This document shows, piece after piece, positions 16,073 through 53,583 of a stretch of 53,583 nucleotides of DNA. Under the pieces are notes generated by a model. It ran no database searches, was not told where the DNA came from, and saw only the letters and a list, made by a program, of their open reading frames with translations. The DNA is from Psammoneis japonica (Eukaryota), in assembly GCA_008632985.1 (NCBI GenBank), contig QPGO01000326.1, positions 1 through 53,583 on the forward strand, written 5' to 3'. Both the position numbers and the translations under genes were made by a program. Position 1 is the stretch's first letter. Every line of letters starts with the position of its first letter.

Positions 16073-16074
<2 letters not shown>

Positions 16075-16123
<49 letters not shown>

Positions 16124-16143
16124 AAGAGAGAGAGAGAGAGAGA
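16075..16143. repeat. (GA)n microsatellite
   Basis: Nearly pure GA run. Confidence 0.97.
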
Positions 16144-17565: not shown

Positions 17566-18344
17566 ATGGCTGACAACGAGAACAATGATGGCACGGCTGC
17601 TCCCAATGAAGTCGCCGCCGCCGCCGCCACAAACACAACCGCATGGTCATCTCCCATGTGCATGCGTGTTTGTGTCATTCCAAGCAAAGAAATGTTCCCT
17701 TGTGATTTTTTTGAGTGCAGCACAGTCGATCACATGAAATTCGGCAGCAAAGCACTGCTTCACAACGGCGCTCTTGTCCACTTTGACACAACAAAATGCC
17801 CGCCTGCTCCCCCTGGAATCAAGGGTTGTTCCAAATGTGACACAACCTGTCATCGCCTCGTTTAAGACATTTGCTCATTGGCGGCCCAGGGTGGGTTTGA
17901 GATCGTGGCAAATGGCGGTGGCCGCATCTTGTGCTCATTCTACAAGATCCACCGTCCCGACAGTGCACGCCAAGTGTCGCACCGCAGGCCTCGGAGTCGC
18001 AAAAGCACAAGAGCCCGGGGCTGGAAGTGCATGTGTGGTTGGGGCCTTGCAGTTCGTTGCAACTCCTTTGGGTGCTTCTTCAAGTGTGACACCAGTCAAG
18101 GCATCCATTGCAACCATCTCAAGCGTCCTCTACAAGAAATTGTCGCAATGAAAACACGTGTCCCTGCTGTCGGTCCCCAAAACATTCGCCATGTGTTGGG
18201 CCCCAAGTTGGACACACTGCACTCGCTTTGTGAATCGCAAGACATTGAGCGGGTGGAAATGCCGGACTTGAAAACCCTTGTCAAGTCTGTGGACGATCTC
18301 ATTTCAGAAATCCAGGGCAAACTGGATGATCTTGAGCCGTCCTT

Positions 18345-18375
<31 letters not shown>

Positions 18376-18501
18376 CAACAACACAACAACATCCACAAAA
18401 TGGCAGCAGCAACAGTCAACCTCAACCACAGTGGTGCCCATTCGCACACGGATGACATCCGCGTGTTTGCATGCACAGCAGGTCAGAGCTGTCCAAGGTG
18501 A
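17566..18501 (+). pseudogene. FAR1/MULE-like (WRKY-GCM1 zinc-finger) domain pseudogene with polyQ
   Basis: ORFs 17488-17865 and 17878-18501 share a frame, split by TAA 17863-17865; GGFEIV...ILC...RKSTR...KCMCGW...HCNH resembles the FAR1 DNA-binding domain; CAG/CAA run near 18346-18382. Confidence 0.45.
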
Positions 18502-31609: not shown

Positions 31610-32323
31610 GCAGGATGGTACTTCGGGCTCATCTGAATTAGTCATCGTGCACGCATAAATCAGAGAAAGATGCTGCAAGGATGTTTATTTTGGGATATTG
31701 TTGGGGAAGGCTTTTTAGAACCAGCAACGAAAGAGATATAGAAATACGTTGAAATTAGAATACTACTAGATGTTCACAGAGCCCATGATGGACTGCTACT
31801 AATTACAGATGACTCACTGTAGCACGGTTTTACCTGGCTCATTCTTTCGTGGCACCATCAGCCTTTGAACAGGCTAAGGCAATAGCGTGACATGGAAGAA
31901 CCGCTTCTACAGAATCACGAGAGTACTCTATTGGGGCGCACGCGTATTGTGATATATATTTTTCATCTTGTTTCCTGGAAGATTCGCCAAATGCTGTTCC
32001 GCGAACAACCCGAATAGAGTGAAACTGGGGTTATCTGCGTCAAATTGCTCAGTTGAGACCATGTGCGGTAGACGTCGAAGCCACATCCTAGAGAAAAAGA
32101 AAAAAAAAACACCGAACGAGACAGAGGTAGGCAAACTTAAAGTCACACAACTTTCATGTGATATGTAGACTGTTAGCGCACTCTAGAGCATGGCAAACTA
32201 GACCTCTACTGTAGCTACTAGCTAGCTCGTAGTACGCCGCCCAGCGATCCACCCCAGCTGTGCCACTGCCAACCAAACCGGATCCTAACCTGTATCATAA
32301 ACAACGCCAACGTCTACGCCACA

Positions 32324-33530
32324 TTGACAATGCGCAGACGACTGCACATCGGTGCTGCACAAGGGTCACGGTGCTCCCGTCTCAACGCACTGCGAACAAT
32401 CATGACAGCCATCGACGACATCTTTCGACCACTCAATGCCAATGACACGGCACAACGTCAAGAACCCATCTCAGTGAAAAAATTGCGCAAAGGAGATGCA
32501 ACCTGGTCGACACAAAAGGAAGTGCTGGGGTGGCTGATCGACACCCACTCCATGACACTGCGCCTCACTGACTGTCGCCTTGCAAGACTCTGCACTGCTC
32601 TCCACCAGGACTCCCCCCACCAACATAATTGAGCTGCCACTTCTGACTGCCACCGCCTGCTTGGTGAGCTCTGCTCACTGTCAACAGCAATCCCCAGATC
32701 ACGTGGTCTGTTTTCCAAACTCCAGAAACTGCTGCGCCAAACACCACACCAGACTCCTGCACATGTCTCACACTGACCTCCATGCAATTATGGACAACTT
32801 TAGAGACCTCTGCACCACCCTTGAACTCCATCCAGCACACCTCCAAGAGCTGGTCCCGCTTGAACCCACCGGTGCATGGATGCCACGATGCTGCCGGTCA
32901 GGGTGCAGGAGGAGTGCCACTGCCCACAAATGCGCTGCCACCGTGCCACGGGCAACTAAACTCAAGTTTGGCCCTTCTGCACGGGCCCGCCGTCAAACCT
33001 CCTCCTGCCCAACAGTGTGGCAAATGCCCTTCCCAAAGGACATGACATCTGACCTTGCAACCTGCGACAACCCCACCGGAACTACAACCAACACCAATCT
33101 CAAGCTCGCAGGTGGCGTTGTGCAAACACATGCAGCCTCCAACTGTTTCGACATGCAAGAACGCACTCACCTCCAATGCACTGACAGTCCAGGGACCATG
33201 TTCTGGCAACAAAAAGGATCCTTGACTGCTGCCAAAGTTCGTGCTTCTCCACTTCATTGCCAAGCCCACCACCAACATTTTCATCAGCAACTCACGCTAC
33301 ATGACTGCCTGCCGGGCCCCCTCAACACTGCCGGCAACAATGCCTCACGCTTGCAATCCCTTGCTGACACCAAAATTTTGCGCCACTTTCACTCTTGTTG
33401 TCCCCAGAACAAACCTTGGTGCTTGTGGACCCCGCCACCCGCACTGTGTTCCTTCGTGACCTCCGTGCTGCACAAGAAGCAGTGCCCATGCAGTTGCCTC
33501 TTCACGAGCCTCCGCCGCCAACACCACACT
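32324..33530 (+). pseudogene. RT C-terminus/RNase H remnant of the YR retroelement
   Basis: EPISVKKLRKGDATWSTQKEVLGWLIDT; GCHDAAGQGAG, TNTNLKLAG, HDCLPGPLNTAGNNASR; frameshifted. Confidence 0.8.
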
Positions 33531-34520
33531 GTGGCCATCGATTGACTCCTTCGTAAAATCAACAATCCCGTCCTCCACCTCCAAGTCTGCCTCCACTGAT
33601 GCCGCATCGGCATCCTCGCACCACGTGGCCATCCCGTCCGTGGATGCACTGCTGAAATGCCTTGCTGTCTGTTGGCCAAACGTTTGCTGCAATGCGGTCC
33701 CCGGACCTGCACCTCACACCACAAGGGGGTTTTGATTTCTGACTCACCTGTCAAATCCATCATTGCAAGAAGCAAGATCCTCCGCCAGACAGAGTCAAGC
33801 CCATCCCGGTTGCCGTCCTGCATTGGGTCCTCTCCGCAGCCGCCCTTGGCCAACACCCGGGCACCCAAGTGATCACAGATGTGATTGCTCTAGCCTTTTT
33901 CTTCCTTTTGCGCCCTGGCAAATGCACTGCCATGCCTTCTGACACCACTCATTTCCAGATTGCCAATGTGCATCTCTCTGCTGGTGGTGCACATCTCAAC
34001 CTGTTTGAAGTGCCCACAGCACAGCCAATGGCCGCCACCTTCACCACCCTCACCTTCGCCGACCAAAAGAATGGTGTGCGCAGTGAAGTCACAGGTCTGG
34101 GCCTTTCTGGCCACCCCCAACTGTGCCCAGTTAAAGCAGCAACACATCGAGTGTTGCACTTGCGCGCCCACGGTGTGCTCCCGGACACCCCCCTCTCTGC
34201 ATGCTTTCATGATGGTGCATGGCACCAGGTCAGCCCAGTTGACATCACATCCATCCTCCACACTGTTGTCACTGCCCTTGGCCCCCAGAACCTTGGTTTT
34301 AACCCTTCTGATGTTTCCACACACTGCCTTTGTGCCGCCGGTGCCACAGGGGTTGCTGTGTGCCCAAGTGGACACTGACATCATCCGTCTCTTGGGACAC
34401 TGGCGCTCCGATGAAATGCTGCAATGCCTCCACCTCCAAGCAGAGCCCATCATGAGCAATTTCTCACAATGCATGCCAGCCGGTGGGAACTTTGTCCTTC
34501 ACCCCAATGACGATGTCCCA
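33530..34520 (+). pseudogene. Tyrosine recombinase remnant
   Basis: KQDPPPDRVKPIP, FFFLLRPGKCT, QKNG, CPVKA, IRLLGHWRSDEMLQCLHLQA; the catalytic Tyr position reads Cys. Confidence 0.85.
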
Positions 34521-34613
34521 CTTGCCCCCAACATGCCTCAAGCACCACAGCTCACCAGCCGGTCCCACCTCTCCCACCCAAAATTCACTTGTGCCTCCTT
34601 TGGAGGAGCTGGA

Positions 34614-35051
34614 GGCCCTTGCCATCCAGCCTGGGTTTTCTTGGGAGAGTGCAAGCCTGTGCCAGCAAAGGCCTCTCCACTCCCAGATTGGTTTGGCCCT
34701 GGTCTGGCCACTGAGTGTTGCTGCAGTGGACAAACAAGAAAAGCGGCAACAGCCACTGGCCTCAAGCAACACACCAAGCAAGATCCCCAATTCCGTTGAG
34801 CACACAAGCGACCCATGAGCTGCCTGTCCAATGAAGCTTGCTCATTCTTTTGAGACAACAACAGCAAGTCAAAGTGGGTGGCTTTTGACACTCCCACCTC
34901 TCCCGCCCTCTGGCCCTTGCCATCCAGCCTGGGTTTTCTTGGGAGAGTGCAAGCGCCTGCACCAGCAAAGCCCTCTCCACTCCTGGATTGGTTTGGTCCC
35001 AGTCCAGCTGCTGAACATTGCTGCAGTGGACAAATGAGAAAACACAGCAAC
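34614..35051 (+). repeat. Pair of about 140-bp direct repeats (34614-34750, 34912-35051) at the element 3' end
   Basis: Both start GGCCCTTGCCATCCAGCCTGGGTTTTCTTGGGAGAGTGCAAGC; mismatches are mostly TG/CA swaps. Confidence 0.9.
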
Positions 35052-35109
35052 TGGATCCCCCATGCTCCACATTGAGTTTGACGATGGTGGTGCCTGTGAC
35101 GTCAATCTA

Positions 35110-35552
35110 GAGTGCAACACACAGCCACTGACAAGAGCCAATGCATCACGGCAACGTGTTGCAGCCTTTAAATGTCACAAAGGGCATGACAAAAACAACC
35201 TTTTGTCTGCATGCACACTGCGTTGTGAATTCACAGCGGAGTGGTTCATCGCAACCATTGGGCAGGAGGCCAGGGGTTCGAAACCCTGAGTGGGAGTTGT
35301 CTGCAGCAACGTTGATCACTGTCGAACGCGCAAAACTCTGTGCAGTTCTGTGTGTTCCTTCGCACGCACCCACACTGTTCCGCCAAAACCGTGCAGTGTC
35401 AGCACACGTCAGCAAAGAGCCGCATGGACGCGTGACACATGGGGAGGAGTGCAACACACAGCTGCTGACAAGAGCTGATGCATCACGGCGACGTGTTGCA
35501 GCCTTTAAATGTCACAAAGGGCGTGACAAAAACAACCTTTTGTCTGCATGCA
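35110..35552 (+). repeat. 106-bp direct repeat pair (35110-35215, 35447-35552)
   Basis: GAGTGCAACACACAG...TTTTGTCTGCATGCA twice; differences are 2 CA/TG and 2 CA/CG. Confidence 0.92.
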
Positions 35553-36047
35553 TGCTGCAAGAGGAACATGTCCAGGGAACCAATCTCTGTCATTTGCTGG
35601 ACAAGGGAAAAAACCGGATGCTGCCAGCAGCTCTGTTTGAAGATTGTGTCATCAAATGGCTCTGGAGAACTGGTTTGCACGCACACACACACACACGAGT
35701 TGAGCATTTTTTTGTCACCTTCTCCTCAGAGTTGACCTTGCATCTGACTCGCACAATGATTGACAACATTATAGAAGTTTCTAAAACATCGTGTGCACTC
35801 TGCTGTTTGCCAAGTCAATGCACCACGCATGTCATTTTGCAGTTTTGCAGGCACAAGTCTGGATTTCATGAGTGCATTTGCAAACAATGGGAGGCTGGTG
35901 TCCGTTGACACCGGCGCCCATTTGAAAGACAGGAAACAGGGGAAAAGCCTTTTCCAGCAGTGCACTTTGCTTGCAGCATCCTCGCCAATGTCACAGTGAC
36001 CAGAAGACTGATGCCACTCCCTGGGAATGAAACAACAGGACAGACCT

Positions 36048-36243
36048 TGACAGAATGCCGAAGGTCGACAATGACAGAGGCATGAAAGACTCCCCAAAGC
36101 ACCAGGACTGTGACAACACGAGTGCCAGCAGATGAGAAAGTGAGAAGCAGATCTCAGAGAGATCTGCTTGTCTGTCCAAATGGTCCAGCCATCATCCGCA
36201 TCCAGTCTGTCCATCGTGCGACATGTGGATGAGCAGGCTGACA
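36048..36243 (-). repeat. 3' LTR
   Basis: Matches 43052-43247 with 10 transition differences. Confidence 0.96.
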
Positions 36244-36253
36244 CCCTCCCCTG
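36244..36253 (-). promoter_or_regulatory. Polypurine tract
   Basis: CAGGGGAGGG on the minus strand immediately before the 3' LTR. Confidence 0.8.
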
Positions 36254-36416
36254 ATCTGCAATGTCTCAACACAGAAAACAGGACAGATCAAACCAAAGAA
36301 CAGGGATGACACAGGGAAACAGAGAGACCAGACACAGGACACAATGAGTGTCCATGCCCAATGCGCCATCAAACAAGGGGGCAATGCGCAGCAGGGAGGC
36401 CACCGTGGAAAAAATG

Positions 36417-39400
36417 TCAACAGTGGTGTCCCATCATGCGTCGAGCGCAGCGAGCGTGTGGCACCCAGCCAAGGGCCTTGGCAAGGTCATCGCTGGGGTT
36501 GATGATGCCAGGAACATGTCTTGTGACAATCTTGCCCGCTTCCTTCCATTTTTGGATCGCAAAAAACTGGATCTCAACATGACGGGATCGCTCAGTCGGG
36601 ATCGAGTGATTGATGATCTTGATCGCCGATTCGTTGTCAATGTGCGACGGGGTTGCCTTCGTCTGAGGGAAGCCTGGATCATGTGGGATGTGATGAAGGC
36701 AAAGGACATGCTTGGCAGCAGTGCCAGCAGCACAGAATTCAGCTTCCGTAGAACTCGCAGCAGTCACCGATTGGGTCTTGCATCAAAAGGATGTGGCAGC
36801 ACCGGCTAACATGCAAGCATGGCCGGTCGCAGAGCGACGGTTGCGGAGGTCATTGCCATGTGCAGCATCCAAAAAAGCAAACAAGTTGATGATCATGTTC
36901 CCGGGAAAGGGAACGAAGGTGGTGTCGGGTCTGGAGTGAGACGTTCGAAGGGGCAGGCGGGCAGTCTTGAGTCTCGGGCAGGCTTCTTGCAATTCAATTC
37001 CCAATGCTTGGTGCGTCGAAGGTGCTTGCATGCGCCCTTGAGTGCATCACAGTGAACCAAAGCAGGACAGGCAGAGAACTTGGAGAGAGCAGTGACAGCA
37101 CAGCCAACATCCAATCAACAGACAACGTGCGCACGCAACAATTCACCAAGGAGAGTGCGGCACCCAAAGCCAGCAGCCTGTTGCAACTCCGCATGTTCCG
37201 AGGTTCCTTCAGCTGGACCAACAGCAGTGTGCAGTTCACAAACAGAGTCAACTGGAATTGGCGCAGCCTTGCAGTCATTGACGAGTTCTTCGTCTGTCGG
37301 TGTCGACCATCCATGCGAAGTACAAACCCGATCAACATGGCTGTGAACAGCAATGCCAATAGAATCATCATGTTGATGGATGTCCACACCGTTGAATTCT
37401 TCAATCATGCCAAGATGCTTGAAAGGCAGAGAAGCTTCCGATTCCAATTGAAGAGCTTCACCAATCTTGTCATGTGTCTTGATCGCAAGGGACTCTTCAG
37501 GACACGCAAGGGAGAAGTCATCAACCTGGCAGAGGAGTGAGATCTTGTGTCCCTCAAAAGCAGCGGAACAGATGCATTTGTCATGAGCAGCATTGCAAAA
37601 AAGTAGATTCACATCAGACAAAATGCTGTTGATGTGCGTCTCCCAGAGCACGCCGGCTTCTGGGTGTCCTTGAAGTGCATGTTGCATTGGAAGCACCATG
37701 GTCCTGTCCAAATCAATGCCAAACCGAGCCTTGCACCAAGTGGCATGTGCTTCATTGACAGCAACATGGACGGGGTGTGATGGTCGCGGGGAGTGTGCGT
37801 GTGCATCACGAGCGTCACCACCAAATGCAGGGTAGCTCACAGTCGCAGCAAGAGCAAAAAACATGCGTTGGATGGGTTGTTCCACACAAGAGGAGCAGGT
37901 CGAGTGAAGATGGTGGAGAATCGACGCAGCATGTGGGGATCCATCACAGCATTGTCGAGATCATCGCGTGCCATCATGCTTGAGATCACATTGCCAATGT
38001 GGACGAAGAACTGTGGCATCCTTTGGACGTTTAATGGTGCACCAAACATCCCCAACTCATGAAATTGGTCGAGTTGTTTGAATTCACCCGCATGCCATTC
38101 GGGCCAGGTGTCCAATTTCTTGAGACGATGGCGAGTGAAAGCACCTGACGCTTGTTCCTCCAGGGCAATCGCATGAGAAGAAATGGTGCAAATGTTGACC
38201 ACACCATTGTCGCAGTCGACATAAATTGGCGGAGGGACGTCATCATCGTCCACATCAGAAAAATCAATGTCAGGGTGACGGATGGCAGCAATGGCATGCA
38301 TGTCAGCAGTGGCAATTTCCGGGACATGCTCATCATCAGGGTCAGGAGTCGGTGCATGGATGTTGTGTTCCATCAGGGCACATTGGAGAGCCTGGGAGTC
38401 CAGTCGACGTTCCGGCATGAATTCGATTTCAAAGTGAGTCTTGCCTGAATCACAGACTTGTTGAAAACGTTTGACAGCCTCCTCTGCCGTGAAGACAGGA
38501 TGATCATCGATCACACGACATGCGCAACCTTGATCTTGTTGTGGGTGGCCTTCAAAGAAGAGAAAAGACGCACAGCAGGAGAACCACGCTTGACATCAGA
38601 GACAAATGCTCACCGACAGAGATCGTCCGTAGCCAAGGAAAGTCCAAACGTTGGATCAGCAAATGGTCCCTTCATCGCACGCTTGATGGTCTTGGCAAAA
38701 GGATTCCCATGAAAGTGAAACTCATCCATCGTGGATTCTTCAGTTTCGGCAGGCAAAGCCTTGCCATCTTGAGTGCGTTCCAAGTGAACCACATTCGGTG
38801 GAAGAGAGTCGTGGGGTGGATCATTCATGCCCTCATCACAACGGATGTGCTTGGCAAGCTTGATGCGCGATGTCTCAGTGTCATGCCAAAGGATGTTCTT
38901 GGCAGTGTCCGGAAGATGGCCTGAGAACATTCCCTTGCGAGAGACAGACCAAAATTTTGCTGGGCGGTGATTCGACGCACGCACCCACACTCGACAACCA
39001 AACGTACGAAAGTTCTTGAAATCACCCTTCCAACCAGCAGCGAGAGCAATCGGAGCAGCAGGTTGTCTGCGGGATGGCATGGCATTGTTGATTCAAATGA
39101 AATGATGAAAAGCACAGGGCCAGAATTTCATGGGCAAATCGGCGCCGATTGGCATCACCCGGATGGCATTGGCAACAGTCAAATGACTGCGTTCCACTGG
39201 GCCACTCTGATTTGAAGCATCTTTTCCCGCAGGACGAATTGTCATCCTCAAAGAGTTGCCGAACTTCTGGGTTTTGATGCAATTCACCCCCTTGATCCAC
39301 AAATGCATGTTCATCTGGACATTTTGGCGAGTGCTCTTCCAGAAAGTGGCGAAACCAATTCAGAGGGGTTGCCTTGGAGACCCGGGTCGCACCATGGAGA

Positions 39401-40800
39401 CGCTTCATTTTATGATCGTAGACAGTGATCCAACAAGTCTCGCCATTCAACCCAACATGGTCTTTGGTGCACTCCGAGTTCTTGGACCGCAGGCCAGAGA
39501 AAGAAAAATCAACCGTGAGGCCTTGGTGTGTTTGGGTGGCAGTAAGAGTGGTGTTCGGACCGGCAGGTTCCTTCGTCTGCTTTGCTCGCACACATGTGGG
39601 ACAAGTGTCGAGGGGAGAAGTTCCGTGGGCAAACTTGGGGACGCCATCAACATGTTCATGGGCATGACAAAGGCAGTGATCACTCGGATGACCAAGTTGC
39701 TGATGCCACAAAAGGCGTTCCATGTCGGCCTTGAGAGATTGCACAGGAACATTCTTCTCTGCATGCTTTTCAAAAGGGACATCCTGATGGACACGGGGGA
39801 TCAACTTGCGTTCAGCACGAAGAGCATCATGTTGGTGAGCATGATGCATTTCAATCATGTGCGCAGAAACCGCTTCACACTCATCGGCAAAGGAAGGGTC
39901 GCTGGTCTTGAGGTGCTCAACAGATGCATCCAATTCATTGGCAGATTCTGGGAGGATGAGAGGGTGAGCAGGACATTTGCCATTGAACAATTTCCCATGG
40001 ACAATGATGTCCTGATTCTTGCACAATCGATGTCGTGCAACAAACTTGCAGGTGCCGAGATCATGGAACTTGAGGATACAGTCAACATTGCAATCTGCAC
40101 GACAAGAACCATTTTGACGAAGGAGGAGTCGCCCATCGACCAACGTAGATTGGATCTGTGGGTGGCAGTGTGCACGGACCTCAACACAGCCGTCAGAGTT
40201 CTCTGCAGGGATGCGAAGACAGCCGAATCCAACTGGGACAGCTTGGTGGCCAAGGGCCAGATTGACGGCAAGGGGACAGGGATGGGATGGAGTGAAGTCT
40301 TGGTGTCGATGGAGGAGGTCACGGTTGCCTGTGCACGCAATGTCAGCACCAGCATCCAACTGAGCACAACGTTCATTCGGAGCAAAATTTACCCCATTGA
40401 CAGAACAAGTGGAGCGCAGCAGTTCCGGCTCAGGTGAGTGACTCGCTTGGCATGGATCGATCGGAGCAACACAGACAGAATTGACGGCAGCAAAACCGTC
40501 TTCAACAGCCATGTCATCACAGGTGAGATCAACACATTCCTCAAAATCCGGTGTTTCTGGGTCTTCCCTCCCCTGTTCCAAAGGATCCGGAGCATGAGCA
40601 GCATTGACGGTGGCTTCTTGAGGAGCAGGATCATCATCGGGTGACGTGCTGGCATCAAATGATGTCTTCGTGGAGGTGGAAGGGGTGGCATCCACATCAA
40701 TCTGTGAGGAAAGAGGCATTTCAGCGGCAGATGACGAGACGGTTAGTCCCTCTTTCAAGGTCATCCCGCTGACATCAGTCTTGTCTCGGTGAGGAGACAA
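36417..40800 (-). pseudogene. Copia pol (protease, integrase, RT, RNase H)
   Basis: AQLDAGAD; LWHQQLGHP..CPTC; DQGGEL, GPVERSH, FWPCAF, RTFGCRVWV; LQGHPEAG, QVDDF; SSTEAEF, IDNESA, RSRHVEI, NPSDDLAK; frameshifts and stops present. Confidence 0.93.
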
Positions 40801-42790
40801 CGGGCAGCATCGGAGATCCGAAACCAGCTGCGATGGCCCGATTGAAAATCCGAGGGTGGAGTGCTAGATGGAGGTGGATTTTCAGGATTGTCATGATGGG
40901 GTGGGAGTGACCCTTGGGGTCCTTGGAACTCAGAAGCATGCACAGCTGCTTCCCGTTTTAAGAATTGACAAAAATGGATGTGGAATCCCTTGATGTGCGG
41001 GTTGTTCTTCAGGACTGGACAGTCATCAAATGAATGCTCTCCAGAGCAGACAAGACATGGTTTCTTGGAGGCTTCATGCAGAGCAACTTTCAGTTTGCAG
41101 ACTGAAGCCGAACATGCATGGTGAAGAATGCGATCTTCATCCGTAGATGGGATCTCGAGTTCATGCAATTCGTCGCAAAGAGTGTCAAAGGCATCCGGAG
41201 GTGGAGACTCTGTGCCAGGATCTTCAGTGGCAGAGGCATCAACTGGTTCTTGAAGGGGCATCTCAGGGATCTGGAGAGAATTGACATTGACAGGTGTGCA
41301 TCGCGCAGCAGCATCTGCTCGATTCCATGTGCGGCATGGGTTGGATTCATCGCACGAGTGGCAAGGGATGGACTGTCCGGTTGGCGGAGGAAATCAGAGA
41401 GAGTCTCGACAATCTGTGCATCCGTGTGCTTCTTCTGCACAGCTGGAGACTTCCGTTCATCTCTGGCAGCACGTGATGAGAACTTGGAGCACTTGGCATT
41501 CTTGACAAAGACAGTCATCTCTCGTGGATCGTTCAATGTAGAGTCCGCATCAAACATGTGGGCACGTAGCTGGAGGAAATCATTGAAGATCATGTGGCAG
41601 TCCGTCAATGATTGATTGCCTTGGACAGGATGGGAATCAACAAGTCCAGCAGCATCGTGATCAAAGGCAGGATGATTCTCACAGAAAATCTGCTTGAGGG
41701 CCTTGCATCCGTTGCTGCAGCATGATGCAACAATCCGATGACATTTGCCATTCTTGGGAAACATGTCCGACTTGGAAAGGATTTTGTGGAGAGAGCTCTG
41801 AGCTTCCTTGCAGTGGACGTACATGCGTTGTGGCAAGTCATCATCCTTGCTGTTTCCGATCTCAAAACCCTTCTCACCACTGTGGTCCTTGGCAAAACAC
41901 CACAGGGGATGCATGTGGCAACCTGAATCAAAGGCATGACGTTGGAAATTTTGGCACCATGCTCGTGTCCCAGGGGAAGAGTCGTCACGACATGCAGGAG
42001 GTTCCCTGAACAACATTTTCTGGTCAGGAGTCGAGCGCATGATGAAAAGGGCACCATCATCAAGGATGACACGATCGGATGCATCAACACAGTGACGGAA
42101 TCCATGGTCGTGAGGGACGAGAGAGCTCTGAAGAGTGACTTTTCCATCTTCTTTGCGGTCGTAGCATGCACAAACATCTGGAGGAAGTGTGTTTGGATTG
42201 AAGAGATGTTTTGACGTTGCGGAGGATGCAGTGCTTCCAGATGTCTCAGCAGAAGCTGTAGAAGGCAGAGCATGACTCGATGCGCATGCATTGAGTGCAT
42301 TGACCAAGTCAGTCACAGTCAATGCAGCAGGTCCTGCAGTTTTCTGAGAAGAAGACGGAGGCTGCTGTTTCTTCTGGCAGGGTGCAAGAGAGAACTTGTT
42401 CCAATTGCGACAGTTCCATGTCATGTCCGGATCAACACATGTGTGTTGGGTGGAGATGAGAACAATCAAAGATTGCTCATTGTTCAGGAGATTTGTCTTG
42501 ATCAGCTTTGACAAGACTGGAGTCGTCAAACAGACTGGACGAATTCTTTGAGAGTCAACAAGTCGGAATGGGGCTTGATCCACAATCGTCTTGATTGATT
42601 GCATGTCTGCAGGATCAGCGGTGTAGGGTGGAAACGCTTCGTGGATGAAGCAATCACGAAGTGTGTCCGTGAAATCTTTCTTGGGTTGCGCATGCTCTGG
42701 GTCGTCAAAAAACGGGTCCAGATCAGTTGTGGAGTCCGCATGAATCGCGTTCAGGCAATTGTGCAGATGTGGTGTCGTTGCATGTGCCTT
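40761..42790 (-). pseudogene. Copia gag
   Basis: Long ORF 41090-42604 upstream of pol; zinc knuckle CLVCSGEHSFDDC near 41020-41060. Confidence 0.75.
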
Positions 42791-43040
42791 GATTCACAGC
42801 AGATCTCTGCAATGGACGACAGAGCGGGCTTTGTGGTGTCGGAAGACGCCATGGTTTTAGTGGGTGGAGCCATTTTTGGTCATGCACGCGTGGAAATCTG
42901 GTGTGTTTCTACGACCGTGAAAAATGCCGGGAAAGTGAGATAAAAAGTTGTCTGATCAGACAATGAGGCTCGCTCGATCGGCTCACAAAACAAATGGGTC
43001 GAAGCAGAAAGCTTGGCGCAGAGGTCTGTGGCACAGCGCA

Positions 43041-43051
43041 TGGCCACAACC
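43041..43051 (-). promoter_or_regulatory. Primer-binding site (mutated)
   Basis: GGTTGTGGCCA directly after the 5' LTR; resembles the GGTTATG.. half-tRNAiMet PBS of Copia with TA->TG. Confidence 0.6.
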
Positions 43052-43247
43052 TGACAGAATGCCGAAGGTCGACAATGACAGAGGTGTGAAAGACTCCCCA
43101 AAGTGCCAGGACTGTGACAACATGAGTGCCAGCAGATGAGAAAGTGAGAAGCAGATCTCAGAGAGATCTGCTCATCTGTCCAAATGGTCCAGCCATCATC
43201 CGCATCCAGTCTGTCCATCACACGACATGTGGATGAGCAGGCTGACA
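43052..43247 (-). repeat. 5' LTR
   Basis: Pairs with 36048-36243. Confidence 0.96.
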
Positions 43248-43509
43248 GACCTTGAAATGTCTTGGAATGCTTTTGCGGGTGAGGAAGATTGACTCCAACT
43301 CTCTAGCTGGCTTTGTTCATGGTGTGTCTTTGTTGCCATCTGGGCAGCACACAAGCCACAAGTGGGCTGTGCGAGGGGTGCAACAACAACAACAACAACA
43401 ACAGGTGAAAGAGCGCACAAGGCGGCGACCACACGGTTTGCCATCTTTGAGCTAAAATGCATGCACTGCTGCATGTGATGCATGCTGTGGGGAGGAATGT
43501 CAACACTGT

Positions 43510-44790
43510 TCAAAACCTCACAGCTTGGCCAGTCAGTGGCATTTCTTCCAGCAGCACTTGTCTCCAAGCATGCTCCTCAGGGCAGGCACCCAATTCCACA
43601 TCACATTCAAGTGCCAATGCTGCGGCTGTTTGCACAAGTGTGTGCCGCCACGACACCCCAACTCATTTCTCCCTCTTGATTTTTAAACAATTCCTCTTGA
43701 AACTCTGCAACCTGTTGTGAGTGTGAGGCATTGTTGTTGTTGTTGTTGTTTGCTGATGCTTTTTCAAGAATGGCAGATGTGGCTGGGAGCGCTTGCTTTT
43801 TCTTTTGCCCGTCCTCATTTGCTTTTGTCTTGGTGTTTCAGCGATTCTTTGACAAGTGAAGGAGCATTTGAGGTTGGAGTTGAAACTCAAATTTACAATG
43901 CACTCCACAATGGGGACAGGATGGAATGATGGTTGGATGACTGTGGATGCAATCCAAAGCAGACCCATGCCATTGTTGCTGTCACAGTCATTTTTGTTTT
44001 CATCCGGCCACTGACAGCACCACAAACACTGCTCCTGTGCACATTCTCGGGATGTCCAATTCAAGCACAAAATTCCAATGTGATGGGATCCTTGGCTCCA
44101 ACACTGGTGCTTCCCGTCATTTGGTTTAAATCATCTTGATTCAAATCAAAATCATCATTGTCAAATGGAGTTTTGCGCTCCTTTTCATTTTCAAATGACG
44201 GTGGTTCCTCTTCCACAACCAATTCATGCTTGGCAAAGATGGATGGCAAAAATGCATCATCTGCAGTTGATTGAAACACGTGTTTCTTGTGTTTGACTTG
44301 ATGTTTGCATCCACAAAACGAAACTCCCTGCAGGGGACATTTTCCCTTGCCACTTTGTCCACATGCTTGACAAAGCGAAAGGTTCCAACAGGACGGTGTG
44401 TGATTTTTCCAATCATCACTCAACAACAAGTCATCCTGGCTGCAGGGACAGAACTCATTTTCTTGCGGCAGTTGTGTTTGCAACACTTGAATCATTGCAT
44501 GGCACCCAAAGATGCGCAGGGTCCGATGAAAGGCATGAAGAGCCGGAGTGCACAATTGACAAAGAAATTTCAAAGGACCATTGCACACAGGACAAGTTGC
44601 CCAATTGATGCTTGGAAGGTCCAGTGGATTCAACCACAATGGTTTGATGCCCATGTGACTGCTGTCCCAATGGTCCACCAATTGGGCTCTCTTGCGAAAC
44701 TCTGTCATTGTCATGAGTTGGCTCTGCAAACCCCAGCTGAGCGCCTTGAAAACAACTGTCATCAGCAGCACTGCTGTCATCAATGGACAT
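43510..44790 (-). pseudogene. PDCD2: PDCD2 (programmed cell death 2/TSR4-like) pseudogene
   Basis: QLGFAEP; KPLWLNP..CPVC..PLKFLCQL..AFHRTLRIFGC; QLPQEN; MYND-like CQACG..FCGCKHQ; CPHCG..KFEFQLQPQML; WGVVAAHTC; EEHAWRQ; frameshifts and stops; 3' end approximate. Confidence 0.85.
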
Positions 44791-45174
44791 TTTTCTCCAC
44801 GTGTCTTCCCTCTGTTGTTGTCATTCTTGTTGCTGTTGTACCTGCCAAAAAGTTGTGAAAGAACAAAAGCTTAAAGCTGTGATGAGATCGCGACTTTTTT
44901 GTGAGGTGATTTGACACAAACTCATAACCCAACAGACACGCCCTCACAGACAGACAACAGAAGAATTCGACAATACAATGTCATACAAATTGTTTCATCA
45001 AAATGACAGGTCATTACGTCTCGCGGTAACAAAGTCATTGTATGATATGACTTTTACAAATTAATTATGCCCTGGAACCATCTTCTAGAACCTGCAGACA
45101 TTCCACGACCACTTTGTTGAACAAATCATCACAAAATCGCCCTCACAATTTGTGCAGTCGACGCCTGAATCACC

Positions 45175-45471
45175 ATGAAGACCTCTGTCTATTCTCTCTT
45201 TTTGCTCCTCCTTGCGGTATTTGCTGTCTCTTCTACGCATGCCCTCAAGCAGGAGAACAGAGGCTTGAGGCGAGGCGATGGGGACGGACGCCGCGAGAGG
45301 AAGCGTGAAGAACGCAAGGGCGCCAGGGAAGGAATGACCAGGGAAGAACGCAAAGGCGTCAGGGAAGGAGTGACGAGGGCAGAACGCTTGGCGGCTCGGG
45401 CGGCGAAAAAGGCGGCGCGTGCTGCGAAAAAGGCTGCACGGGCTGCCAAGAGGAAGCAAACGGCGCCCTAG
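45175..45471 (+). CDS. Small secreted Lys/Arg/Ala-rich protein, paralogue 1
   Basis: Signal peptide MKTSVYSLFLLLLAVFAVSSTHA, RGL motif, AARAAKK repeats. Confidence 0.85.
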   Translation: MKTSVYSLFLLLLAVFAVSSTHALKQENRGLRRGDGDGRRERKREERKGAREGMTREERKGVREGVTRAERLAARAAKKAARAAKKAARAAKRKQTAP

Positions 45472-45514
45472 AGATACTTCAAGTCGTTTTGTGGTTGAAA
45501 CATTGCCAAGAAGG

Positions 45515-46050
45515 AAAAATCATGGGTTGCAAGGACAAGAGCGACGAGAAAAGGTTATTTAGAAAGATTGTGACTGTAACTTTAGAGAGACTGCGATTTA
45601 CAATACTTCATTGTGCACTCCGTTGAAAAGATCATAGCTACTCTACGTGCTGCCGATCGTTTGCTATTTGTTGCAAGTGGATGTAAAGATCCACCACATG
45701 GCAACAAGTGTTTTTCGATTCAAAGAGACCAACGTACTTCATGGGACTGCTTCAATGACTACCCATAGGGCAAGAATCGAACGAAAAAGTGAGCATCGAC
45801 GGGACGTTTACACATCTACTTACAACACTGCGAAACTAGAAATGCCATGGGTTGTAAGGACAAGAAAAACGAGTGATTGTTCTTTGTTGTTGACTTGGGA
45901 TAGCTTGAACGTACAGTCCCGTTGAAAGGATGAAAGCTACTTTACTGAGGCTCATTCGCTCTTTGATTTGAGTGGATAATAGAATTCCAAGATATTCATG
46001 AAAAAGTGAGCATCGACAGGATGAAGACACACCCACTCCTACAGACACTC
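45515..46050 (+). repeat. Diverged tandem duplication of the downstream non-coding segment
   Basis: CATGGGTTG(C/T)AAGGACAAGA, CGTTGAAA.GAT.A.AGCTACT and AAAAAGTGAGCATCGAC each occur twice in the same order. Confidence 0.7.
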
Positions 46051-46254
46051 TCAAAGGACTCTACCCTGCCATTTCGTGATGAAGAAGAAGCCGGAAATGT
46101 CTTTTTGATGAAACAATTAGAGGTCTACTGCCAAAAATATCTTCCGAACCCATCGACATTTTCGTTGATGCCGACACGTGACTGACGGTGCGCCACTCGA
46201 CACAAACTCACAATTTCGAATTTCCAACAGTCGTTACACCGTGATACCGTCATC

Positions 46255-46571
46255 ATGAAGACCTCTGTATATTCTCTCCTTTTGATTTTCCTTGCACTTT
46301 TTGCGGCTTCTTCTACTCATGCCCTCGAGGACAACGGATCGAGGCTCATGGCGGATGCTGCTTATTCCAGAGCCGAAAAGATGGCAGAGCGCAAAGAAGG
46401 CCGCATTCGGGGAGGAATGAGGAAGGATGCACGCAAAAAGGCAATTGCTGCAAGAAAAGCTGCTCGAGCCGCACGAAGGCTGCAAGAAAGGCTGCACGGG
46501 CTGCCAAGAGAGCCGAGAAAAAGGGAAAAATGGAAAAGACCCCAGGTGATAAAGGAGAGGAACAGCCATGA
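46255..46571 (+). CDS. Small secreted Lys/Arg/Ala-rich protein, paralogue 2
   Basis: Homologous signal peptide; restoring one A near 46476 gives KAARKAARAAKRAEKK...GEEQP-stop, matching paralogue 3. Confidence 0.78.
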
Positions 46572-47292
46572 GAAGAGTGTCTGAACCAGAACGAGTCGAT
46601 CACTGTAGTGCGAGTCGCTGCCATTATGCTGGGTTTCATATTTGAAGAAGGAAAATTGAGTTACAAAGGAAAGGGCGACTGGGTTGATTCTTTCACGACG
46701 GTAACTTTATAATGAGCGACTGTTGATCTATTCTTTGGTCTTCTGTCCTCGAAAATAATAAACTTAGATGAAACCTGGAAAGGTTGCACTTTGGTTCAAA
46801 CGACTAGGGCCCTACCGAAATCAACCATGCAGCCAAACTAAGGACGTCGAGGTCGCGAGGTCGTGAAATGAGTGGTCATGAGGTTTCATCTGCTTCTCTT
46901 CTTGTTTCTGCTCCCTTTTTTAGAAGTGCCAGAAGCAGGAAAGAAAGGGTTCAAAAGATTTTTCTCTGCAATGCGTGGAGCGGCATTCGCCAATGAAATC
47001 ACGCTTCCAACGTGAAATGAAACTCGACAAAAGGTTTCAAAAGTCACATTCGCTGCATGGATGACTACTGCGGTACGTAGAATACTACATTGGTCGTTGT
47101 GTCTTGTGGCATTCACAGGTCATGACGAGAAGTGACTTTTCTGCAACAATTAACGGCGCACTTCGTTCGGAAGCACCTTCCAGAACCGTGGTGAAATTCT
47201 GAGATTCGACCAACTCACTTTTTCGTTCTCACAATTTCGATTTCCATCCAGTCGTTTCTTCATTACTGCTCTACCGCATTTGTAACATCACC

Positions 47293-47640
47293 ATGAAGAC
47301 CTCCATCTACTTTCTTCTTTGCCTCTTCCTTGCTCTGTTTGCAGTTTCTTCGACGCAAGCCCTTGAGGAGAGCGGAGCAAAACACTTGGATCGTGCCGCA
47401 AAGAGGGTGGAACGTGCCGAACGCAAACAAGGCGTCAGGGGAGGAATGACGATGGAAGAACGCAAAGCGAAACTAGCCTCCAGAAAGGCTGCACGGGCTG
47501 CCAAAAAGGCTGCAAGAAAGGCAGCTAGGAAAGCAAGTAGAAAGGCTGCACGAGCTGCCGAGAGAGCCGCGAAGAAGGCTGAGAAAAAGGCAGCCAGGAA
47601 GGATGCCCGCAAGGAAGGCGAAGAAGAATACCCTTTATGA
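47293..47640 (+). CDS. Small secreted Lys/Arg/Ala-rich protein, paralogue 3
   Basis: MKTSIYFLLCLFLALFAVSSTQA followed by many KAAR/KAAK repeats. Confidence 0.85.
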   Translation: MKTSIYFLLCLFLALFAVSSTQALEESGAKHLDRAAKRVERAERKQGVRGGMTMEERKAKLASRKAARAAKKAARKAARKASRKAARAAERAAKKAEKKAARKDARKEGEEEYPL

Positions 47641-50445
47641 GTGACTCAACCAGGACAAGCCGATTTGTGCGCTTCTCCGTTATCGAGTTGAAACTAGTAA
47701 AGAAGAAAGAACATGTGCTTGCGAGAAGACCGGGATTGGGTGTTGGGTGAACGGTCTGTAACTTTATAGTTGATTGTTTCGCACTTGTGGCGCACATTTC
47801 TCTGTAGAAAAGATCGCTGACCAAGGCGTTTTTGTATGATAGTTCGTCTTTGTCTTCATGCTAAAGGGCAACACAACGTTTCGAAACAAAAACAAACATC
47901 ACAACCATTCGTACGAGTTGACTATCGTACCGTACAAAAACCCATGACTCTAGAGAGAGCTTCTCTCTCTAGTAGCTACTACTCTAGTGCAAGACAGGGG
48001 ACACAATCTGTCGGAGGGAAGTTTCAGTCGTGATAGTCCAGTGGCGTGTTGAATCCCACGGAGAGCGAATCATCTTACGCGGAAGTTGCCCCCCAAAGAG
48101 GACGAGTCCCAGGGAGAACAATTCTGGGACAGTTGGAAGAACAGCCCTCACAGAAGAGTTCAGAATTTAGAGAAACAGCATGGTGATGCACTTTGTTGTC
48201 ATTAAGAGGCTGCAGGAGTGCCTGTCAAACAAGACAGATGAGGTGCAGTGTGTCAGCCCATTGAGGTCTCGAGCCCACAAAATTTCACGTCTCATCTCCT
48301 CGCACCTTTCTCCACTTGCTGCTTTCATTCTTTGCATGCTTTCTGTTTGGTGTTCTGTTGCTGTTGACTCTGGGTTGACCCTGCCTTGCTCCTGCTTGCA
48401 ACAATGTGTGGTGCCAGCCATGCAGCTCTGCCAATCGCCACCCTGCTGCTGCTGCTCCTCACTTGCTTTCACACTTTGTCTTGACACCCAACTGGTTGGC
48501 TGTTTTGTTTTAGAAGCACATTGTGTGCTTTGCCCACACTCTGGATGTGATGACACACCACATCAGGAGCCTGTCATTGTGTCGACCATTGTGTGTGCAC
48601 AAAAAGCTTGCACTCATTGACGCAAAAGAAGGCTGCACAAAAGCAGCAAAGAGTGCCTGGTGGCTCAACACACAAAGAGCCACACAGCACAGTGCAAGAG
48701 CTCTGTGTGCCACAGCTTTGTTCCACCTGCAAAAAGATGATGCACCCATGAGAAATTTCTGGATTTGCTTGTCTGACAAAACAAAAAGGAGCCAATTTCC
48801 TGTGGTGAGCTGCCAAACCCTTGTTTTCACAGATGTGCCAGTGTCTCTCAAGAAGACATGAGCAAGTGTGCTGATTTCATCATGGCTGTCCCACAACAAG
48901 GGTTGCAAGGATGACAGTTTCTGTGATCTTTGTTTGAACCAAGTGACTTGCTGCTTTCCCAACTTGGTGTTGATTTGGCTCCTGGATGCATTTCCAAAGA
49001 TGTGCGCGCCTTTGCTGCAGCAAAGCAGAGCATCAGCAAAGCTTGTTGGACACAAAGACACTGGCAGCATGATGCACAACAACACTGCAGTGCTCAGGTT
49101 GTGCAAGCTCCTCAAGCAACTGAATGTGGGGGGCACACAGCACTTTTGTTCCAGTGGCTTGCTTTTTCCAGAACAGCACATTGTGAATGACACAGCTCTG
49201 CCAAGTCAGCCTGCATTTGATGCACCATGATGTGCACAGAATGTCCCTCAACCATCAGCTGCTGAGGGTCTCTTTTGTCCATGAGACTGCAAGGCAGTGC
49301 ACCACTGCTGTGTCAGACTGAAGCACTTTTTGTGCTGAAAAAAAAAAAACAAAACATGGCCAAGATGTGCCACACTGCAAGACTTGTGAAGATGGCAGTG
49401 TTGTCAATGTGGGAACACTGTCCCAGAGGAGCCATGTGTTCAGATTGGGCCATTGATGCCCCCTTGCGTTTCATGCAGATGCACCCATGTGTTCTGCCTG
49501 CCAAGCCTTCTTGGTGGGTGTGTGCTGCTGTGGCTGCAGCAGCCCCTTTGCCAGAGCCACAGCACATGTTGTGTGTGTGCGGGAATTGCCCTCATTGACA
49601 ATCTGATGCATCGAACAATGTCTGCTCCACATGCACAGCAACAAGAGACAGCAACAAAACATGTGGCAGTTTGCAGACACAGTCATTGATGAGACAAACT
49701 GATTGAGTGGCAGACTCATGCGCACGCAAAAGCATGTCTTTCTTGTGTGATTTTAGATTGTTGCTTCAATTGAATGCAAAAAACAAGTTTGAGAGGAAAC
49801 TGCTGGTGGCACAGCATCCAATGGTGCATTCCTCCGAACCAGGTGAGGCACAGACAGACAAAAAAGCATGAATTTAGAATCCACTCATTTAGCTTCAAAC
49901 GATTGCTCAAATTTGGAGATTTTACTGTGATGATGAGTGGCCTCTTGCAAGCTGGCCGGCCTGCATTCATTTTAGTTTTTCCAAATTTTGAGTCAAGACA
50001 CCACACGTTTTTGCCATGCTTTGATTTTTTGTGTCTCCCACGGACAGAGACGATGTTGCATTCATCAAGATGGTGTCTTGGTGGCACCACAGCAAAATTG
50101 TCAAACATTGCAAACTCTTCACCCATCAATGAATCCACTGTCACATTTGTTGATGATCATGCTGAACAACAGGGCCATGGCAGCTGCCAAAGAAACTCAG
50201 CCAATTTTTTGTGGTCATTGTGATGCACTGGCATGGTTTCATGAAGTCATTTTGCATCACAATTCTGTGTCTGATTCAGGTGTTTCATTTCTTTCTACTT
50301 TGCTTGGGTCACCTGAGATTTCTCATGAAAAGCTTTTGAGAACTTGTGGTTTGTTGAAGGTGAAATTCCTTTGCATGATTGGAGACTTGGGCGCCATTCC
50401 AAGGTTTGAAAAAAGAGCAAAAAAGCGTGATGTGCCCCACTGCAA

Positions 50446-50727
50446 ATAGAAAAGGAGCAACCTTTGTTCATGCATTGGAGGCAGAGGACAATGTTGGCAA
50501 TGCAGCGGATGTGCTGATCCCAAGCAAACCTGCTTTTGCACTTGTTGCTTTTTTGCATCAACCAGCATCAAGTGGCTCAAGACATTGAAGCATCCAAGGC
50601 TGTCACAACAAACTTTCAAAGTCAAGTGATGGGTGTCAGCCACATCATTTGCATGATGTTGCCATGGGAAAACCCAGTCTGCCTTTTTCAAGTGTGGCTC
50701 ATCTTTGAAGTTGCATCTGCAATTTAA
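50446..50727 (+). pseudogene. Remnant of a conserved domain often found N-terminal to TPR/kinesin-light-chain-like repeats
   Basis: FCINQHQV...HIICMMLPWENPVCLFQVWLIFE resembles the recalled CINQH...PWxxPxYLxRxWCxFE motif. Confidence 0.45.
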
Positions 50728-51283
50728 AAGGGGAAAATGATGGTTGGAGCAAAAGATGTCAAGACACCATTGGTGCTCCTCTCTGCACAGGCAGCTCAGC
50801 TCTTTTTCTGTTGCTTTCTTCTTGACATGTGATTTTGACCAGTTGCTCCTCGACAAATGATTTTGACTGGTTGCATCTTTTGGACAATGATGAAAATTCA
50901 GCTCTGTTTGTGCCAACACCACTTCTCCTCTGTGACTGAATCATCCTGGATGGAAGTGACTGGTGCAGCAGCAGTGGACATGCATTGTGAGCAACAAACA
51001 ACTCTGGACCAAGCAATGCTTGATTTGACAAACAATGGGACAGCTTTGCATTCATTTTGTTGCTTGTTGCTTGTGCAGCACTCAGTCTCTGTCTGCTCTC
51101 TGGCTGGAGCAGCCACTGGAACAGAGCAGTTGTTGTTTCTCTGCCAGTGGTGTGTCCACACAGATGCCATGACACCACACATGCCATTTCTGTCTGTGCC
51201 AGAACTTGTGCTGATTCTGCAGGATGGCATGTGAGATGCCATGTTTGTTTGTGACAGTCACTTGGAACTTGTGCCACTCCAAT

Positions 51284-51355
51284 GGGTCTGTGCCCAAAAG
51301 GCAAAAGTTCAAGTTGCAAGGGTCTGTGCCTAAAAGGCAAAAGTTCAAGTTGCAA
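51284..51355 (+). repeat. 36-bp tandem duplication
   Basis: GGGTCTGTGCC(C/T)AAAAGGCAAAAGTTCAAGTTGCAA twice. Confidence 0.95.
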
Positions 51356-52766
51356 GATGCAAGGCGCCATCATCATGGGCACACAACATTGCACCACACT
51401 CTGCCCCAACCTCTTGCCAGCACACTTTCTGTCAACATTTGTCTTGAGGAAGAAGAGATGTTGTGATGGATGATCCATTTGTTCCTCTGACAAATTCTGC
51501 AAAAGAGTTGGATGCAGGAAGGTTGTTGTGTCTGCAACAATGATGATGATGGGCTTGAATTGAATGGTGCGGTGTTGAGTGGCAAGTCTGTTGCTCTGTG
51601 GGAGGCACATGATGTTGACCCTGTTGACTGTGATGCACCACTAACTTCATTTTCTGACAGGCACAAACAATGCAGAAATGATGTGGAACATGGCTCACTC
51701 TGATGCTGGAGAGCTTTTGGAGCAACACTCCTTCCCAATGCTCCTTGTCAACATGATTTTGGCAGACAATCATGAGAATTTTCACATTGGCTTGTGAGGA
51801 CTGTGAAGCTTTTTGTGGAAAGACAATCATCCAACAAATGCCCAGCTGTTTGTCTGTGGCTCCACCACCCAAGGATCATGAGAGAGCAATGACAGTCACA
51901 CCAGATTGAGCTGCAGCTTGCTGTGCAAACTTGGCACCATGCAATGGAAATGGAAGTGGCACATGCTGTGTGTCTGCAGCAGCTGGTCTTTTCTTGATGG
52001 TGTTGATGATGCATTTTTTTCTTTCACCAACAGAAAATGGCAATGGCTGACCCTGTTTCCTGAAAAGTGCCGCTGCACAGCAGCAGGTGTGTTGATGCAT
52101 GCACATGTGTTTCTTGTCTTTTCTTCCATTTCAGCTTGCCTTTGCAATTCTCCTGTGGCTCACTTGTTTTCAGCTCTTGGAGAAACTCTGCCACTGGAGT
52201 CAGTTTGGTCACACATGCTGGATGCCTGCTGTTTTGTCATGATGGTCATGCTGGCCTTTGCAATTCTTCTCTTGTGGCTTGCTTGTTCCCATCTCTTGGA
52301 GAAGCTGGAGAGATTCAGTTTGGTTGCAAACGCTGGGAGGCTGCATTGTCTTTCAGCAACAACACTCTGCCGAGTGCCAGTTCACCCACCGAGCTGACCA
52401 ATCCAAGCAAAGCCACAGGACAGCATGCTCGGGCAAGTCTGCATGCAAGACAATGTTGGTTCTTTTTGATGAAATTCAATGGGCGGGTGATGGAAGTGAG
52501 TCTGGCAACACCATGCAGCAAATGCCAAGTTGCGTGGTCACACTGAATCAGACAATGTCATGCAGCAAATGCTGAGCTGCACAGTCACACCATGTGTTGT
52601 GCATCAATCTCAAGTTTGTTGGGAAATTGGCCCTTCTTGCATCCAGGTTGGCAGCAGATGCATGGATCACTGCTTGTCCTGTGCTCGTCAATGCAGGTCA
52701 ATGGATCCTTGGTCCCAATCCTTTTGACACAGCGGCGTGCCACACTCCACACACAGCACCACATTG

Positions 52767-53583
52767 TCATGGTGCATTTGCTGCACTTCCAACACATCCA
52801 ACAATTTTGTTGATGTGGTTGACCAACATTGTGCCTGCTCTAAAGTTGCTTCTCTGTTGGAGGTCTTGCAGCATCACCAGCATCATCAGTTGTTTGTTTG
52901 AGTGGCTCCACTGCCAGCGTGGATGGTCAACTTTGAGTGAGACAGCCCCGGTCAGGCCTGGTGCTTGAGGCCTTTGCAGAGCACATCTGAGAATTTTCTT
53001 GCCTTCATCTTTTGCCCATGAGTGGTTTGGTTGAGGTGCCAGCAGAGTTGGTGAAGATCCACTGCTGACTCTCCCACAGTGGTGATGAGGAGCTGGAACC
53101 AGCAGCAACAGCAAGTTGGTCATGATTGCTCCAAACCAAGAATGTCCTGTGTCTTTGCTTGTTGTGTTCATTGACAATTGGGAGACATTTGTGCAGAAAC
53201 TCACAGAGTTTTGGGCACAGGAGATCTTCAATGCCATTTCTCTGCACTCGTTCTCAAAGTTTGACACACAAGGGGTGTCAGATGGAGTTGCAAGCCCACA
53301 TGTTGGTGTAAAATGTGCAATGTTCGTTTCACTCCATGTGCAACCAAGTGCTGTCAAATTCACTCCCACAATTTCCGTTGCAAGCACAACCCATTTTCCA
53401 GCCAAATGATTGGGGTGTTGTGCCATCATGATTCATTGTGCAGCTGCCTTTGGGAAAAAAGCTGCACTGTTCTTTACAACGAAAGTCGAGTGAACATTGA
53501 GAAATTTCCGGACTTCCATGCAACTCATGATGCTGCCGAACCATGCATTACCTCCAACCCAGCCACCTTCCTTCACACCAGCT
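52767..53583 (-). mobile_element. piggyBac-like (PGBD/IS4-fold) transposase remnant, running off the window end
   Basis: VGGNAWFGS, HSTFVVK..FFPK, AGKWVV, TCG, EFLHKCLPIVNEHNKQR match recalled diatom piggyBac-like motifs (GDAWFGS; FLYEYLPLIDEHNKQRQ); left edge approximate. Confidence 0.72.

Follow-up and report, generated by a model that had tools for sequence, protein, structure and literature searches.

The window, that is, the whole stretch of DNA that was analysed (53,583 nucleotides of Psammoneis japonica contig QPGO01000326.1), is a mosaic in which TA-normal gene blocks alternate with TA deserts, and a copy of the PDCD2 gene forms the right end of one desert (Table 1). Positions 43510-44790 contain 3 TA (observed/expected ratio, o/e, 0.03), whereas 92 were expected and the minimum in 2000 base shuffles was 70. 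The o/e values of CG, CA, and TG in the same region were 0.31, 1.88, and 1.73, respectively. An earlier note on this DNA had described a full-length PDCD2-like sequence that was TA-depleted, essentially Tyr-free, and disrupted. Indeed, when the copy was read in the frame of its donor, none of the 12 Tyr codons was kept and two stops were observed, at 44063 and 43840. The residues AHTC and EEHAW described in that note were also observed; the donor has VYTC and EEYAW.

Table 1 Features of the desert containing the PDCD2 copy. Positions are those of the window; C342 is the contig carrying the donor gene.
Feature	Position	Strand	Remarks
TpA-erased domain	32316-44830		TA o/e 0.04-0.10 in main parts vs 0.48-0.54 in flanking gene blocks
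Tyrosine-recombinase retroelement	32236-35042	+	5'-truncated, TA-erased; adjoins left end of duplicate; Atlas 0.96 to Tyr-recombinase cluster
Duplicated host segment	35045-45007		About 2.3 kb minus two later insertions; 3' flank, CDS, upstream
Young high-copy 450-bp repeat	35110-35560		Inserted in left part of duplicate
Duplicate, left part	35745-36050		C342 12176-11878, 81%
Copia-type LTR retrotransposon	36048-43247	-	Inserted into duplicate; LTRs 36048-36243 and 43052-43247
Duplicate, main part	43244-44896		C342 11889-10300, 82%
PDCD2/TSR4 pseudogene	43534-44790	-	Full-length copy of C342 10403-11662; several indels
Duplicate, right part	44892-45007		C342 8849-8747, 80%

An intact paralogue had been thought likely to exist elsewhere, and such a gene was found on contig C342 of the same genome, where an ORF of 419 amino acids without a stop (10403-11662) carries the PDCD2_C domain (PF04194, 87 bits, E 1e-24). 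This was the one other PDCD2 copy in the genome in a protein search with all five candidates scored, and a DNA search agreed. The donor protein shares 35-48% identity with most of the 120 homologues listed, many of which are named TSR4 or PDCD2; those listed with organism names are from diatoms. PDCD2/Tsr4 is described as a chaperone of the ribosomal protein uS5 (PMC7736825). The donor fits this family by having PDCD2_C in a full-length frame and is predicted from its sequence to share that function, while the window copy is a pseudogene. The latter is a dead, DNA-level duplicate of the C342 gene, and origin as a retrocopy is unlikely because the upstream and downstream flanks were copied too. 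The mutated target is hence a duplicate of a host gene and not viral or foreign DNA, and the claim of the note that the targeting is not specific to transposable elements was borne out.

The donor escaped mutation, its non-coding flank included. TA and CG o/e in its CDS were 0.46 and 1.11, respectively; TA at codon junctions was 0.65, compared with 0.41-0.71 in six ORFs of the window, and TA o/e reached 1.07 in the non-coding 3' flank. As a separate observation, C342 11928-12165 and 33947-34190 form an inverted 90% repeat pair with TA retained, and towards the left the window follows the second copy (C342 33947-34190) for longer, a hint that C342 was rearranged later.

Alignment with the intact paralogue, as the note had proposed, gave a clean spectrum and a spared donor. 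Positions 43244-44896 were aligned with C342, and 1572 sites were compared. The 59 TA of the donor appear in the copy as 3 TA, 26 CA, 23 TG, and 7 others, and its 88 CG as 21 CG, 30 CA, 29 TG, and 8 others; in the opposite direction, 1 TA-type and 5 CG-type differences were observed. The differences are enriched at TpA as the note had supposed: A>G was found at 55 of 119 A preceded by T versus 35 of 714 other A (Fisher P 3e-29), namely 16/285 after A, 10/228 after C, and 9/201 after G. C>T was found at 59 of 176 C before G versus 19 of 545 otherwise, and at 5 of 231 CpA. Decay of CpG is a second signature, absent from the earlier note, and accounts for 59 of the 209 substitutions compared with 55 for TpA. 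In the part of the duplicate left of the Copia element (299 sites), 22 TA-type and 12 CG-type changes were counted. Non-synonymous TA opportunities were changed at least as often as synonymous ones (28/53 and 7/25, respectively), indicating that selection was off.

The direction of change was read from the 120 homologues. The donor residue was favoured in 15 of 15 informative amino-acid changes of the TA class and in 15 of 15 of the CG class, with 12 and 17 further changes, respectively, being uninformative; among the other changes, 11 favoured the donor, 2 favoured the window, and 16 were uninformative. TA was thus lost in the copy, and the reverse, a gain of TA in the donor, was rejected because the homologues side with the donor residue.

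We also compared the window with X1, an independent DNA run. Its contigs stem from one sample, perhaps that of the assembly itself and perhaps that of a relative. The copy and the donor piece both had an X1 depth of 54-55, and neighbouring DNA had 45-60. An allele or haplotig was rejected by this equal depth and by the confinement of the C342 homology to the segment; no second copy of the gene blocks flanking the domain was found among the scored candidates (4 of 4, and the best 40 of 420). For the substitutions, an assembly artefact was rejected, since 0.69 of the sampled words recur in X1; no RNA run was listed as containing them. In its long pieces, X1 departs from the window copy at 13 positions or more; those listed include five CG-decay events, three A>G changes of another kind, a single C>T, and a single transversion. 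Where the donor has TA at 43911-43912, the window has TG and X1 has CA, a hint that mutation may be ongoing in some lines. The 1-base deletions at 43944, 44677, and 44683 and the stop at 43840 have no counterpart in X1 and are either private to the lineage of the assembly or sequencing errors; no difference is listed at the stop at 44063, and the insertion at 43612 is retained. At window position 44193, one X1 contig continues with 28 unlike letters and another runs through, possibly a polymorphic insertion.

The right edge of the erased domain lies at about 44830-44925, roughly 80-180 bases inside the end of the homology and just before the neighbouring genes. The left limit of the duplicate is less certain, since two stretches there (35045-35112, 35558-36000) correspond to a low-copy repeat, C342 33135-34190. 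The retroelement adjoining this end, which we take to be DIRS/Ngaro-like with the label resting partly on motifs, gave no recombinase or reverse transcriptase match in a Pfam search. Its relatives (on contigs C26 and C261, 77-80%) differ from it by about 10% background, and its own repeats differ at 3 of 129, indicating an older element. Next to the domain edge, 45169-47640 contain three small basic ORFs in tandem, whose N-termini are hydrophobic; the ORFs are 69-83% alike, confined to a single locus, and TA-normal. Two other deserts of the window, 13300-20400 and 48200-53583, have TA o/e of 0.01-0.08 and CG o/e down to 0.04-0.2, and look older than the desert studied.

The Copia element shows GAG-pre-integrase and RVT_2 domains, both slightly below the Pfam cut-off, and a 5-bp target duplication (36043-36047 and 43248-43252) that is single at the empty site on C342. 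Its LTRs differ at 4 CA/TG and 2 CG sites only, with 0 background differences in 196 bases, compared with 71 in 1345 gap-free sites (5.3%) in the gene pair (Fisher P 8e-5). From transversions and non-CpG C>T alone, 6.6 LTR differences would be expected (P 0.0014). The LTRs being free of background differences, Copia is much younger than the duplication. The CG o/e was 0.65 in Copia and 0.36 and 0.32 in the duplicate on either side. The 450-bp repeat is also young: comparison with 8 sister copies gave 2-3 background differences in each case.

A young 1.4-kb repeat (C342 8868-10298), whose end lies some 100 bases before the start of the intact PDCD2, allowed the process to be followed in copies of recent origin. 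It has sub-terminal inverted repeats, occurs in head-to-tail arrays on C134, C89, and C151, and is by its anatomy presumably Helentron/HINE-like. At least 27 near-full relatives were found among the best 40 of 89 candidates scored. We analysed 24 copies from 19 loci with the copy upstream of the donor as the reference, and counts were made after removal of two reference-private sites (for CG losses, one such site). Individual copies lost 0-46 of 57 TA; in total, 597 TA changes, 42 CG losses, and 20 clock changes (transversions and non-CpG C>T) were observed. The TA changes are far above background, as a relative rate only. A>G occurred at 597 of 2735 A after T, compared with 24/5328 after A, 10/4560 after C, and 5/3406 after G (39/13294 outside TpA). 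Loss of TA runs about 15 times faster than CpG decay and precedes it. At 45 of the 57 sites, TA was changed both ways in different copies, which indicates that many changes arose in place and on both strands. Adjacent changes fell on the same strand in 285 of 575 pairs (289 expected), showing no strand runs, and the 3' base had an effect (TAC 27%, TAT 26%, TAA 18%, TAG 12%). Across copies, TA changes rose with other differences (rho 0.58).

Within copies, the TA changes skew to the TA-poorer flank (rho 0.81, P 1.6e-4, n=16). All 11 copies whose flanks differ by 0.2 or more skew to the TA-poor side, whichever way along the element that side lies; a copy on C424, which falls below this threshold, skews the other way. 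Eight copies were left out of this comparison (3 with fewer than 5 changes and 5 with short flanks), and tandem copies are not independent; the 11 lie on 10 contigs and the two on C151 share changes. The reference copy is unmutated though its distance from a TA-poor block is about 175 bases.

Two further cases bear on where mutation begins and ends. An LRR-receptor-like gene at window 2854-5306 has two wholly TA-erased paralogues (on C75 and C72). It is itself mutated up to 3766 only, and homology to both paralogues extends past 5049, so that its mutation edge lies more than 1.2 kb inside the homology. Recent gene conversion of its 5' part from the erased paralogues was not supported, transversion rates being alike inside and outside; its use as a single-copy control was dropped when the two paralogues were found. 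The other case is a side observation: window 2437-2816 is a repeat of very high copy number (1419 candidates) whose terminal ends are inverted, and 29 TA are still present in it. Five sister copies, 4 of them inside deserts, differ by 3-5 TA losses. Since these 4 lie in TA-poor DNA and are yet barely mutated, unmutated copies may simply be the newest, and age is confounded with position.

We consider it likely that a TpA-specific A-to-G process works site by site on whatever sits in a silent, transposon-seeded domain, with slower decay of CpG added. The history of the locus would then be as follows. A 2.3-kb piece of the PDCD2 locus was copied at the DNA level beside the old tyrosine-recombinase retroelement and became part of a presumably silent domain, which is probably CG-methylated to judge from the CpG decay and for which old elements may have been the seeds and active genes the boundaries. 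In such domains, A is changed to G at TpA on either strand, turning TA into TG or CA, by a process that, as the young repeat family shows, acts in place and site by site and favours a pyrimidine 3' of the A. The most likely chemistry would be deamination of DNA adenine by an enzyme of the TadA/ADAT type that is brought to silent chromatin. The 450-bp repeat and Copia would have landed later in the already decaying duplicate and then been mutated themselves. For the chemistry taken by itself, adenine deamination by a TadA/ADAT-type enzyme stands at about even odds.

The earlier note had suggested that targeting follows either duplication, by homology sensing as in RIP, or spreading from the adjacent Copia block. 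Under the former, a reverse RIP or small-RNA guidance would recognise the second copy, and the donor would escape through transcription or through selection against mutated donors. Several observations fit: the right edge of the domain is near the end of the homology, like RIP edges (about 150 bp in the portion of 10.1101/344036 available to us); tandem-array copies of the 1.4-kb repeat are among the most heavily mutated, 29-46 of 57 TA being changed in 9 of 12; and two of the three LRR paralogues are wholly erased. RIP is also described as leaking into neighbours with a gradient (PMC2973834), so gradients alone cannot exclude a homology trigger on nearby transposons. However, the 3' flank and codon-junction TA of the donor are intact, where selection is weak. 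Four pairs of duplicates retain TA, namely an 848-bp 98% pair on one contig (16 of 18 kept), a tandem pair (19/20), a 90% inverted pair (19/23), and a 3.3-kb pair (113/114) that is possibly a redundant assembly. Three of the 24 copies of the 1.4-kb repeat, at least 99.5% identical to the reference and with at least 27 near-full relatives, carry 0-1 TA changes; the mutation edges run through homologous sequence; and the hypermutated NCLDV region of Bigelowiella is described as single-copy. With the donor and close duplicates unmutated and edges crossing homologous sequence, the RIP-like part of the claim was not supported in that form, and we regard homology sensing as unlikely. (The 3.3-kb pair, L051/L052 on C41 and C317, surrounds a dCMP-deaminase-type gene and is 99% identical.) Aiming by chromosomal position, rather than by sequence class or the presence of a homologue, is supported, though not proven.

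If instead Copia started the damage, the duplicate would have stayed unmutated until the insertion, from which the process then spread. Copia does adjoin the copy with both its sides mutated, and loss of TA saturates quickly enough to postdate the insertion. Nevertheless, this order of events appears improbable given the LTRs without background differences, the lower CG o/e of the duplicate, the older element at its other end, and a TA loss that stays level across the 1.6 kb adjoining the LTR (17/17, 12/13, 9/10, 7/8, 6/6, 5/5). The younger age of Copia argues against it as the origin, even though loss of TA before its arrival is unproven by age order alone. Spreading from this Copia, which was inserted much later and has lost less CG, was thus not supported as the origin; the general idea of spreading from transposon-rich DNA was, and the older tyrosine-recombinase retroelement at the left junction is a better candidate seed. 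Still less probable, in our judgement, is that a mobile unit, either the tyrosine-recombinase element or the low-copy 3'-flank repeat, had captured the gene copy as cargo, and that the copy was mutated as part of a transposon. The duplicate does begin a few bases from the 3' end of the retroelement (35042/35045), and its left part is the low-copy repeat; on the other hand, the protein and DNA searches found only one other PDCD2 copy, the relatives on C26 and C261 match up to 35032-35040 only, and self-comparison revealed neither a terminal repeat nor a target duplication flanking the 2.3-kb piece. A weightier alternative, possible though we do not prefer it, keeps the targeting and changes the chemistry: deamination of N6-methyladenine at TpA, a modified thymine with G as its partner, or a Pol-eta-type polymerase prone to errors. 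A>G is indistinguishable by sequence from T>C on the opposite strand, and A>G is slightly more frequent after A (0.45%) than after C (0.22%) or G (0.15%). Pol eta prefers WA, in contrast to the roughly 48-fold excess of TA over AA seen here. The 3' preference of TAC and TAT over TAA and TAG resembles the substrate context of TadA. No confirmation of such a preference was found in the accessible portion of PMC10661471. A PF00383 search of the genome gave 9 matches, none of which was singled out as a candidate enzyme; they include TadA-like (C38), ADAT2-like (C26), and other deaminases, labelled by motif reading and none implicated, and being of housekeeping type they leave room for another chemistry. 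One open frame (L055 313-1785, on C79) combines a deaminase domain with a 2OG-Fe(II) oxygenase and probably belongs to purine metabolism.

Beyond this locus, we tentatively propose that DNA adenine editing coupled to silent chromatin operates genome-wide in this diatom lineage, ahead of and independent of CpG decay. It would start in old transposon blocks, spread as far as sharp borders with active genes, and routinely kill host gene duplicates that land in these blocks. It would be a position-guided counterpart of RIP with reverse polarity, shared with Rhizaria and possibly ancestral to SAR. The PDCD2 pair provides a polarised, selection-free spectrum of a TpA-specific process, and the controls point to the chromosomal domain as an aiming rule that can be tested in culture. 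If true, the process sets a limit on the potential of gene duplication in diatoms, makes the dating of LTRs and pseudogenes unreliable, and points to a natural DNA adenine deaminase.

In the literature searched, mostly outside subscription journals, no report of a TpA-specific process in diatoms was found, and the one description of a natural A-to-G process specific to TpA in genomic DNA concerns viral inserts of a rhizarian alga. In Bigelowiella natans, TpA hypermutation is reported for integrated NCLDV and virophage DNA (bioRxiv 10.64898/2026.01.13.699255); an adenine deaminase is proposed there, not shown, and the aiming rule is left open in the parts of that preprint available to us, whose text does not contain the words "diatom", "pseudogene", "paralog", or "CpG". 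Common to both cases are the change of TpA to TpG or CpA on both strands and its regional character, and the Bigelowiella process, as described, can act without a second copy. Unlike in that report, the present host is a diatom, the target is a duplicate of a housekeeping gene among retrotransposons, the loss is near saturation, and CpG decay runs alongside; de novo mutations were measured in Bigelowiella, whereas here the process is read from standing sequence. This rare mutation process reaches host genes too.

CG methylation of transposons is described as DNMT5-dependent in Phaeodactylum (PMC9998398). By analogy, decay of CG-methylated transposons would account for the 59 changes of CG to TG or CA and suggests a methylated domain. 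CpG decay cannot yield the loss of TA, which in the young copies far outnumbers the loss of CG (597 and 42). A processive single-strand deaminase leaving APOBEC-like tracts would be expected to give strand-coordinated runs, which are absent here. With RIP of Neurospora and other ascomycetes, as covered in the accessible portions of 10.1101/344036 and PMC2973834, the process shares gradients into neighbours as well as transitions that are specific to a dinucleotide, fall on both strands, and ruin transposons and duplicated genes. The mutation edge lies near the end of the homology at the PDCD2 copy and far inside it at the LRR gene. RIP changes C to T mainly at CpA, creates TpA, and is triggered by homology. 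In the present case, by contrast, TpA disappears, and neither the donor nor close duplicates were mutated.
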